Assembly: GCA_030141605.1 (NCBI GenBank)
Contig: JAQGDQ010000083.1
Location: 310,001 to 374,000 of the forward strand
Reading direction: 5' to 3'
Origin: Tubiluchus corallicola
Taxonomy: Eukaryota > Animalia > Priapulida
Length of the DNA stretch: 64,000 bases
The notes beneath the pieces are model-generated. The model searched no databases, had not been told where the DNA came from, and saw only the letters and a program-made list of their open reading frames with translations. Positions 32,001 through 35,000 of the stretch are shown here, piece by piece. Each line of letters starts with the position of its first letter. The stretch's first letter is position 1. Made by a program: the position numbers and the translations under genes.

Positions 32001-35000
32001 GCGAAAGCGTGTGAAAGTGTGTGAAACGAGGTAAAAAGCGCCTCAAACGAAGAAAAAGGGAGAAGTGGAGTTCCCGCCGAGGACTAATTAGTGCTAATTG
32101 GCGCTAATTGGCGAGCCCCTGCCACCCCTCCGCCGCGTGCAAACGTCCGTCCCGGGGGTCGGGGACACCCCCCCTGCAACCCACCCCTCCGTCACGTGGA
32201 ATCGTCCATTGCAGGCAATGAGGGAAATCTTCCCCCCCCCCACTCGCGCAGTGCCGGCCCTTTTCCGCGACCACTTCTCTCTCTCGGGTGCCCTCCCTTT
32301 TCCGCGACCACTTCTCTCGCGGGTTTAGATGTGTGTGTGTGTGTGTGTGTGTGGAGATTTATTTCAAACGCCAAAGTTCGATAAATGCATTTTCACAAAT
32401 CTTTTTTATTGATGGATTACAAAAAATTTTTTTTACATTTTTTTATGCAAAATACATACGTGCTAAAACTAGATTATTATTATTATTATGGTGACGTGAT
32501 AGTTCTACATTTTACGTTTTTTTCGCAAATTACACAAATTATGCAAATTACAGTAAAACTACACTAATGACGACGAGCGAGTACATGGATTGTCGTCGTC
32601 GTCGTCGATGTGATACAGACAAACGTTATTGTTGTTAAAAACGAATTCGTTAAATTTGCGGAAAACGTGAGAGAAATCCTCGACCTTTGTCCCGCCCATC
32701 ATTATTATGCTTCCGGTGTGAAAAATGTTCAGAGTAATTTGCTCGCATTTGCAAGTTAGTTTGGGAAATAGTTCCACTTCGTAAAACACTTCTCTAAAAG
32801 AATGCGTCGAAGGACGAACGAGTTCTTCGTACAGTGCACCCAGTTTCAATCTGCAGCGAATTTTGGCTCTGGCGGTGATGGTGCGAATTGCGATCCCGTC
32901 GGCGGGCGTCAGTCCGAGACCTTTCGAGAGTTCTTCGATCGCATTGCGTAGTACTTTTTCCTCCGAAAAACCGTTGGCCACCACGGAGCCGGAGGCAAAA
33001 ATCATCAGCGTCCCGCCCAGTCGCTTTAGCAGAAGCATTTGCGGTTTTCTTTCGTAGCGTCTTCCGCCCGTTCTCCGCCGGAGTTCGTTCAGATCGAAGC
33101 GCTGCGAGAACGAAGCCGTGGCGACGATGTTGACCGTTTGGACTGACACGTTAGAACATAGTTGGCAATCGTTTCGGACGCCCGAACCGCTCTGCCTCGT
33201 CCGTTGCTCTGCCAACGTATGGCGGGCGGCGGGTGGTCGCTTTCCAGATCCTCTACGCGTATGACCACGCGATTTTTGGGGAGATGTTTTTTGACGAAAT
33301 CGTACATCTCTGCTCCCTTGACGTAGGTGATCCTGCCTCTGGTGGTCTGTCGTAGAATGTTTTCCAATTCTGCGTACTCGATCATTCCCTCCTCCCACGA
33401 GATGCCGTGTATGTGTCTGATTAGGTAGTTGTAGGTGGATCGCTTGTGCTGGGGAACACGATTCCAGGGGTGGGGCGGTTTGAAGGTGTAGTTGTGATAT
33501 ATGCCGGTCTCTATTTCGCGAATTACCAAATTTTTGACCAGGTATTCTTCTTTTCCGCACTGGAAGGCATCTACGGTGAGAACTATGCTCGATTCAGACA
33601 TCTGTGACGATGGGGGGTCCTTCTACGCCGTCGGCAACGAGTTTTCCTTCGATGACGATTTGCTTGTGATTGTTCACAAATTCCAGAGACTTGATTTTTT
33701 CGAAGGTGTATTTTTTTATGACCTTGTTGGGGGCACTCTTGCGTGCGTTGGCGCGCTTGCCGCCCCGCGTCCCCGCTTGTTGTTGTTGCTTGCGAGGAAC
33801 TGGACAAACTGGACGGAAAGAAGTCTGCCAGACACGGACGTCGGCACCTCCGCCCCTCCGTGTAAAAGCAGACGCGAGAGAGGGACACGAATGGACATCT
33901 TTCGAGAGGAGGAGGAGGAAGAGGAGAAAGATGATGATAAAGAAGAAGACAAACTCGTAATTTCCGCGACGCCCCCTCCATCGCCGCCGATGGTGCTCAC
34001 CCCCACTGCCCCCAAAAAACCTAGAAATCTGAAAGAATGGCTCATCAAAAATGCCTAGTTGTCGTTAGCGAACAACAATACTATAACTATTGTTCTTCTT
34101 CTCTTGCAGGATTTCAAACAACCTCTAACCACCGTTCCTCGCAAGCAACAACAACAAGCGGGGACGCGGGGCGGCAAGCGCGCCAACGCACGCAAGAGTG
34201 CCCCCAACAAGGTCATAAAAAAATACACCTTCGAAAAAATCAAGTCTCTGGAATTTGTGAACAATCACAAGCAAATCGTCATCGAAGGAAAACTCGTTGC
34301 CGACGGCGTAGAAGGACCCCCCATCGTCACAGATGTCTGAATCGAGCATAGTTCTCACCGTAGATGCCTTCCAGTGCGGAAAAGAAGAATACCTGGTCAA
34401 AAATTTGGTAATTCGCGAAATAGAGACCGGCATATATCACAACTACACCTTCAAACCGCCCCACCCCTGGAATCGCGTTCCCCAGCACAAGCGATCCACC
34501 TACAACTACCTAANNNNNNNNNNNNNNNNNNNNNNNNNNNNNNNNNNNNNNNNNNNNNNNNNNNNNNNNNNNNNNNNNNNNNNNNNNNNNNNNNNNCACC
34601 TACGTCAAGGGAGCAGAGATGTACGATTTCGTCAAAAAACATCTCCCCAAAAATCGCGTGGTCATACGCGTAGAGGATCTGGAAAGCGAGCACCCGCCGC
34701 CCGCCATACGTTGGCAGAGCAACGGACGAGGCAGAGCGGTTCGGGCGTCCGAAACGATTGCCAACTACGTTCTAACGTGTCAGTCCAAACGGTCAACATT
34801 GTCGCCACTGCTTCGTTCTCGCAGCGCTTCGATCTGAACGAACTCCGGCGGAGAACGGGCGGAAGACGCTACGAAAGGAAACCGCAAATGCTTCTGCTAA
34901 AGCGACTGGGCGGGACGGTGATGATTTTTGCCTCCGGCTCCGTGGTGGCCAACGGTTTTTCGGAGGAAAAAGTACTACGCAATGCGATCGAAGAACTCTC

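Follow-up and report, generated by a model that had tools for sequence, protein, structure and literature searches.

The 64,000-nucleotide stretch of DNA analysed here (the window) carries two copies of a gene for a compact, divergent TBP (mini-TBP), and we lean towards the view that in the parent element this protein would act as a late-promoter factor, binding a non-standard TATA-like word and engaging host TFIIB and RNA polymerase II through residues E186 and E188. The window is animal-type DNA, AT-rich and with abundant microsatellites, and both genes lie within a GC-richer island, a near-palindromic element of 4.76 kb at 31603-36361 (Table 1). We propose that the parent element would transcribe its TBP gene early by means of host TBP; the product would then bind the element's own late word, and the kept E186/E188 stirrup would recruit host TFIIB followed by RNA polymerase II. 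The case for an altered specificity of mini-TBP comes from relatives, 25-30% identical to it, which show both a residue signature and a promoter word.

Table 1 Features of the palindromic element (window positions)
Feature	Position	Strand	Remarks
Inverted-repeat left arm	31603..33800	+	Starts AGTAGT
Mini-TBP, left copy	32559..33149	-	196 codons plus stop; frame from GTG; first in-frame AUG at 33038
Upstream gene, left copy	33089..33601	-	170 aa; 3' end overlaps TBP start by 61 nt
Short basic reading frame	33594..33800	-	In both arms; putative coding; stop overlaps start of 170-aa gene
Unique middle, 333 nt	33801..34133		Short acidic ORF 33891-34058 (+); TATAACTA word at 34082; pyrimidine tract and AG at 34109
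Inverted-repeat right arm	34134..36361	+	Ends ACTACT
Upstream gene, right copy	34333..34837	+	Interrupted by assembly gap
Assembly gap, 83 bases N	34514..34596		Inside right arm
Mini-TBP, right copy	34777..35367	+	Frame from GTG; 99% identical to left copy, with 5 nt and 2 aa differences

The Pfam TBP family (PF00352) matched mini-TBP with an E-value of 4.7e-22 (78.1 bits against a cut-off of 22.9) in two stretches corresponding to both lobes, and 32 TBP sequences from the PDB matched it at E<=1e-3. Structure prediction from a 21-row alignment gave a saddle fold (pLDDT 91.7, pTM 0.84), and this model compared with the microsporidian cellular TBP 3oc3_C at a TM-score of 0.76 and an rmsd of 2.0 Å. 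Residues were numbered by reference to canonical TBPs that align colinearly with the yeast protein (1rm1_A). On this scale mini-TBP keeps N69, F116, E186, E188, F190, P191 and F207, has lost F99 (alignments place either Pro or a gap there) and carries T159, T194, T203 and N205; further changes are V161T, L114M, T124N, T215M, K120S and K211S. A preliminary description of this gene had called the same residue states, with the proviso that a proper alignment might shift them or that the protein might fail to fold; in the anchored alignment none of the called residues shifted, and the predicted fold is that of a TBP with high confidence. The canonical TATA-binding set of four intercalating Phe and both Asn/Thr pairs is broken by the loss of F99 and by N159T, T124N and T215M, while the TFIIB-contacting pair E186/E188 is present, as judged by sequence. 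The basic patch of the N-lobe is lost (N91G, R137E, K138E and K145L, with R133 and K141 kept), its mapping onto the five signature positions of PMC7221094 being approximate. The changes K120S and K211S affect phosphate contacts and may weaken DNA binding.

The identity of mini-TBP to cellular TBP is about 25%. In a quick tree that held no TLF row, it fell outside the eukaryotic and archaeal TBP groups, its partner there being the Logan protein P0002 (support 100), with a looser tie to three further compact TBPs (88); it was not joined with support to the metagenome-locus group discussed below. A host TBP paralogue of the TRF/TLF type, or a captured host gene, could account for the retention of E186/E188 as in cellular TBPs, but the low identity, the position in this tree, the Phe instead of Trp at position 116 and the location in a high-depth inverted repeat render such an origin scarcely credible. 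The preliminary description was right to call the protein an element TBP. At position 116 the protein is unlike TRF2/TLF, which the description had set apart from it, this residue being Trp in TBPL1 according to the available part of PMC7221094.

The same description had argued for altered specificity from positions 194, 203 and 205, at which the mutant TBPm3 carries I194F, V203T and L205V (PMC1636458, in the part available). Mini-TBP matches one of these three changes, V203T, whereas its residues 194 and 205 are polar and not larger or smaller hydrophobic ones. Of the 118 TBP-like proteins retrieved by a full HMMER search, 116 were tabulated after exclusion of the reference protein and one four-lobed fusion. 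Among these 116 divergent TBPs, Thr was the commonest residue at position 203 (40, against 30 with Val), which is the symmetry mate of T112 in the other lobe. T203 was not linked to the loss of F99, being present in 4/16 F99-less and 32/94 F99/Y99 TBPs (p 0.57), and in the element TBPs positions 194 and 203 are both variable, with Thr in 1/18 at each. A natural equivalent of TBPm3 reading TGTAAA is decidedly improbable on these counts: T203 does equal V203T, N205 falls in the same pocket and the unique middle has one GTGTAAAAG (at 33860), some 30 nt ahead of the AUG of its short acidic ORF, but I194F and L205V are absent, T203 is common and unlinked to the family signature, TGTAAA was not enriched upstream of the relatives' genes (9/43 windows, within the shuffle range with its maximum of 10), and the single GTGTAAAAG site is at chance level. 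On sequence comparison mini-TBP resembles TBPm3 only incidentally; what carries meaning is the loss of F99 with S/T159, T161 and N205. The TBPm3 parallel was therefore a weak argument, whereas the altered specificity that it was meant to support is still the likelier reading, through the family signature instead of residues 194, 203 and 205. Another TBP match, P0004, is 702 residues long, with four matching stretches (four TBP-lobe pairs' worth) followed by a predicted membrane segment.

The closest relative of mini-TBP is P0002, which is 59% identical, shares T159, T194, T203 and N205 and comes with no gene context. It was the sole close match of a word-based search, in which no relative of the 170-aa gene upstream of mini-TBP was found. 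Scans of viral contigs and a first metagenome scan returned no relatives, and 59 metagenome loci were recovered using nine F99-less relatives as queries. The relatives at these loci were chosen by the pattern FxSGKFRxM, so that positions 116-123 are fixed and carry no weight; they are about 25-30% identical to mini-TBP and form a separate subclade, with R122/M124 against V122/N124 in mini-TBP. Among the tabulated proteins, T/S159 was present in 12/16 F99-less TBPs against 5/94 F99/Y99 TBPs, and N205 in 10/16 against 5/94, counts in which kin share traits and the tests are not independent. For the loci, residues were counted in the 50 of 59 with a TBP segment of at least 135 residues, the nine shorter ones being dropped. 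All 50 have N69, S/T159, T161 and F207 and lack F99; E188 and F190 were each found in 49, N205 in 47 and E186 in 28 (with Asp in 12). After dereplication at 60% identity, N69, S/T159, T161, E188, F190, N205 and F207 were present and F99 was lost in 18/18 relatives, with Glu at position 186 in 11/18 and Asp in 3. Judged from these alignments, loss of F99 together with S/T159, T161 and N205 is a family trait of the element TBPs.

The relatives of mini-TBP reside in Polintons/Mavericks. At least one core Polinton gene (PolB, rve-chromo integrase, ATPase, capsid or protease) was found at 40/59 loci and at 20/21 of those of at least 3 kb, and a PLA2-like gene is also among the neighbours of TBP in related loci. 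Inspection of the long ORFs of six loci revealed no TFIIB homologue.

Promoter words were counted in the region from -75 to -10 of the ATPase, PLA2, integrase and capsid genes of the relatives, using dereplicated windows and 200 dinucleotide shuffles. ATAAAC was present upstream of these late genes in 33/43 windows (shuffles: mean 2.2, maximum 8), with [C/T]ATAAAC mostly 35-60 nt upstream of the capsid, ATPase, integrase and PLA2 genes; some of the CATAAAC matches fall within upstream coding sequence. Among 44 sites, the base before ATAAA was C in 18 and T in 17, and position 7 was C in 32. Before the TBP genes of the relatives, ATAAAC was absent (0/38) and the canonical TATAWAW was found in 8/38 (shuffles: mean 1.1, maximum 5). 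The element in the window contains neither ATAAAC nor late genes, and the word of mini-TBP may differ from that of the locus group, from which it differs at positions 122 and 124.

The residue changes suggest how such a word might be read. F99 and F116 together kink DNA at the step from base pair 7 to 8, F190 and F207 at that from base pair 1 to 2 (PMC3142196, human numbering, in the part available), so the loss of F99 would fit the change at position 7. We propose that loss of F99 and of the N159/T215 pair may admit C at position 7, while F190, F207 and P191 of the C-lobe would still grip the 5' end of the word. Without the basic patch of its N-lobe (N91, R137, K138 and K145), the protein may escape control of the Mot1/TAF1/TFIIA type; viral TBPs have lost their N-lobe regulatory signature, which is argued in the available part of PMC7221094 to lessen exposure to host regulators. 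Most viral TBPs accompany their own TFIIB, and the C.L3.2 glutamate is kept in only about 40% of them (same source, same part). Since mini-TBP keeps both glutamates while most viral TBPs pair with a viral TFIIB, its partner would more plausibly be the host TFIIB.

It is also conceivable, though unlikely, that specificity has been relaxed and not redirected, ATAAAC being a weak TATA box for host TBP at which the element TBP only raises occupancy. TATAAAC is one base off the canonical word, positions 194 and 203 vary freely, and all the loci behind the word counts carry a TBP gene, so that host TBP might be the reader of the word. However, C was as common as T at position 1 (18 against 17 of 44) and position 7 was C in 32/44, and the fixed non-canonical residues N205, T161 and S/T159 would not be expected from drift alone. 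The preliminary description had also proposed a TFIIB decoy. As such, the protein would titrate TFIIB of the host and depress host transcription, with no reading of DNA. The retention of E186/E188 and the loss of K120, K211 and F99 would suit a decoy, but N69, F116, F190 and F207 are invariant in the relatives while E186 is more variable, and the promoter word of the relatives is specific to a gene class. Moreover, binding of TBP to TFIIB needs DNA. At the level of the family, the invariant residues and the matching promoter word disfavour the decoy, which we consider improbable for mini-TBP.

We take the element at 31603-36361 to be, on balance, a non-autonomous Polinton/Maverick-like derivative, and this assignment forms part of the late-factor reading. 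Its arms of about 2.2 kb are 95% alike over 1.77 kb, with an identity of 92.7% in the outer 730 bases, 98-99.7% further in and 99.7% over the inner 380 nt. The AGT-repeat ends (AGTAGT...ACTACT) are of the Maverick type. Insertion of Polintons/Mavericks yields a 6-bp target-site duplication; the 6-mers flanking 31603-36361 differ, so that no such duplication is present, but with the assembly gap separating the ends the flanks may derive from different insertions. No PolB, integrase, ATPase, protease or capsid gene was found in the 4.76-kb element. The element family is clearly multi-copy: in run X4, the summed depth (which is not a copy number) was about 11,000-77,000 across the element against 100-450 on the flanks, and in run X1 one 753-base contig spanning the TBP gene had a depth of 536 against 4-34 for flank contigs. 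Contigs of three runs that fit from 33792 rightwards have a different sequence before that point, from which other copies of the element would be longer and 33800 would be a candidate deletion or fold-back junction. The assignment as a derivative draws on this excess of depth over the flanks and on the adjacency of both genes, 170-aa and TBP, in six related loci.

The product of the upstream gene matched unnamed clusters common in arthropods (0.96) and Maelstrom (0.86), and an RNase-H-like/Maelstrom-like nature is given here as a lead only; its single-sequence model (pLDDT 37.5) was unusable. A homologue of this gene lies directly before TBP in 6/59 related loci. The protein has T-x-D where its relatives have D-x-E in the first strand, as well as a 20-residue tail past the end of the relatives, and by sequence it may represent a DEDD/Maelstrom-like nuclease with altered catalysis. 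Loci L032, L039, L040 and L043 have the layout of the window, with a 65-77-nt overlap between the TBP start and a different DEDD-like gene; the TBP-overlapping gene of L040 showed no clear homology to the 170-aa gene (BLASTP E 0.051). Neither the short basic frame nor the short acidic ORF had a Pfam match, and no AUG was found in the basic frame. Ahead of this frame, the two arms have different pyrimidine tracts with an AG (33800 and 34109), resembling two alternative splice acceptors, and TATAACTA sits 28 nt ahead of the right-hand AG, where it could alternatively mark a start site.

Whether the cut-down copy makes a TBP is a separate matter, and it may not. The first in-frame AUG corresponds to residue 38, past the N69 strand and the first helix, and neither the window nor the dominant form of two runs has one ahead of that strand. 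In run X1 the dominant form, with the same GTG start, accounts for 536/565 of the depth, and the 753-nt contig differs from the TBP gene of the window at three positions and without gaps. By eye, a splice acceptor seemed conceivable shortly after the TBP start, but it was rejected: two diverged contigs have an altered AG, and the phase of the best donor upstream does not fit. One low-depth diverged copy has a changed first codon but also a premature stop and mostly non-synonymous changes, and it is therefore uninformative on the original start codon. The TBP frame is open across all 150 codons of the upstream gene (33150-33593, minus strand) as far as the stop of the short basic frame, which occurred in 0.2% of 5000 synonymous resamplings in one post hoc test; the six distant relatives do not show this openness.

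These observations bear on the idea that mini-TBP is untranslated cargo here, copied only for lying in a terminal repeat, which we hold to be a tentative possibility and which is compatible with a late-factor role in the parent. A product from residue 38 would, in the model, lack the N69 strand and first helix, the element has no target genes, and the low-depth, diverged copies have the look of decay, with 19 codons changed (6 synonymous, 12 non-synonymous and 1 stop). Against cargo stand the frame itself, which is intact in the two arms as well as in an independent run's dominant contig, the open upstream frame, the purine at -3 of the GTG and the CpG content of the element genes, which is not depleted (observed/expected 1.32 against 0.67 outside).

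The late-factor reading can be extended to a bolder form that we regard as rather unlikely, namely that this is the smallest private late-transcription system known in animal Polintons. One rewired TBP of about 170 residues would read its own word, escape the host TBP regulators and borrow host TFIIB and Pol II; subfamilies would have different TBP/word pairs, and the two TBP copies of the high-copy mini-element, with a low-level non-AUG start, would act in trans on autonomous helpers. Polintons have no RNA polymerase of their own, and a dedicated mini-TBP with a matching word would, if confirmed, explain how their capsid and packaging genes are timed. It would also provide natural TBP/promoter pairs of changed specificity (loss of F99 with C at position 7, and fixed N205, T161 and S/T159), useful for studies of base reading by TBP and for orthogonal promoters. 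The window locus contributes a palindromic mini-element of unusual form and a new subfamily member; the promoter word comes from the relatives and not from this locus.

Elsewhere in the window, a 1,050-codon open frame at 1081-4233 (minus strand) contains about 45 tandem 14-residue repeats rich in His, Glu, Tyr and Pro (42-nt period), between a start resembling that of a chitinase and a chitin-binding CBM14 domain; it appears to be the final exon of a host chitinase whose linker is repetitive and very long. Minisatellite arrays lie at 5025-6094, 14095-14955, 47775-48740 and 51078-51906 (periods of 55, 36, 111 and 28 nt, respectively), and a 134-nt sequence present at 22270-22403 and 37188-37321 (93% identical) is probably a short dispersed repeat or MITE.

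Mini-TBP shares with cellular TBPs (PF00352; yeast 1ytb/1rm1, microsporidian 3oc3) the two-lobed saddle, N69, F116, F190, P191, F207 and E186/E188. It differs from them in having no N-terminal extension, S2-S3 loops that are both about two residues shorter and a short acidic tail, as well as in the loss of F99 and of the N-lobe basic patch, in T159, T161, N124, M215 and N205 and in K120S/K211S. The likeness to TBPm3/spm3, as given in the available part of PMC1636458, consists of changes at 194, 203 and 205 with V203T in common, whereas I194F and L205V are absent and the word of the relatives, [C/T]ATAAAC, keeps A at position 2; in PMC1802564 spm3 was employed only as a tool. TLF/TRF2/TBPL1 is likewise a divergent TBP that may still meet TFIIB, but TBPL1 has Trp at the position of F116 and does not bind TATA, according to the available parts of PMC3142196 and PMC7221094, while mini-TBP keeps F116, F190 and F207.

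Polintons, Mavericks and adintoviruses, as portrayed in the available parts of PMC8502044, 10.1101/697771 and 10.1101/2025.02.07.637071, have in common with the element long gene-containing terminal inverted repeats, a Maelstrom-like gene and compact overlapping genes; the window copy differs in its missing core genes (PolB, integrase, ATPase, protease and capsids) and target-site duplication. Gene-containing TIRs of about 2 kb and 'mael'-associated and mobile polB-less polintons are described in the available part of 10.1101/2025.02.07.637071. TBP appears as a label in the legend of a MELD-virus figure in the adintovirus paper and its preprint (PMC8502044 and 10.1101/697771, each in the part available). 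Beyond this label, the literature covered, which excluded the adintovirus supplements and most subscription journals, held no text on residues or promoter words of a Polinton TBP, and the available part of PMC12220804 matched this topic in its reference list only. The best viral structural matches of mini-TBP were NCLDV TBPs. TBP-like proteins of large dsDNA viruses share with it an element-encoded TBP fold, loss of the N-lobe signature and a presumed late role (PMC7221094, in the part available), and late factors of the herpesvirus ORF24 type resemble it in their presumed late-gene role. Mini-TBP stands apart from these viral TBPs in that it keeps both glutamates and, at about 180 residues, stands alone in a class of 15-20 kb elements without a polymerase of their own.
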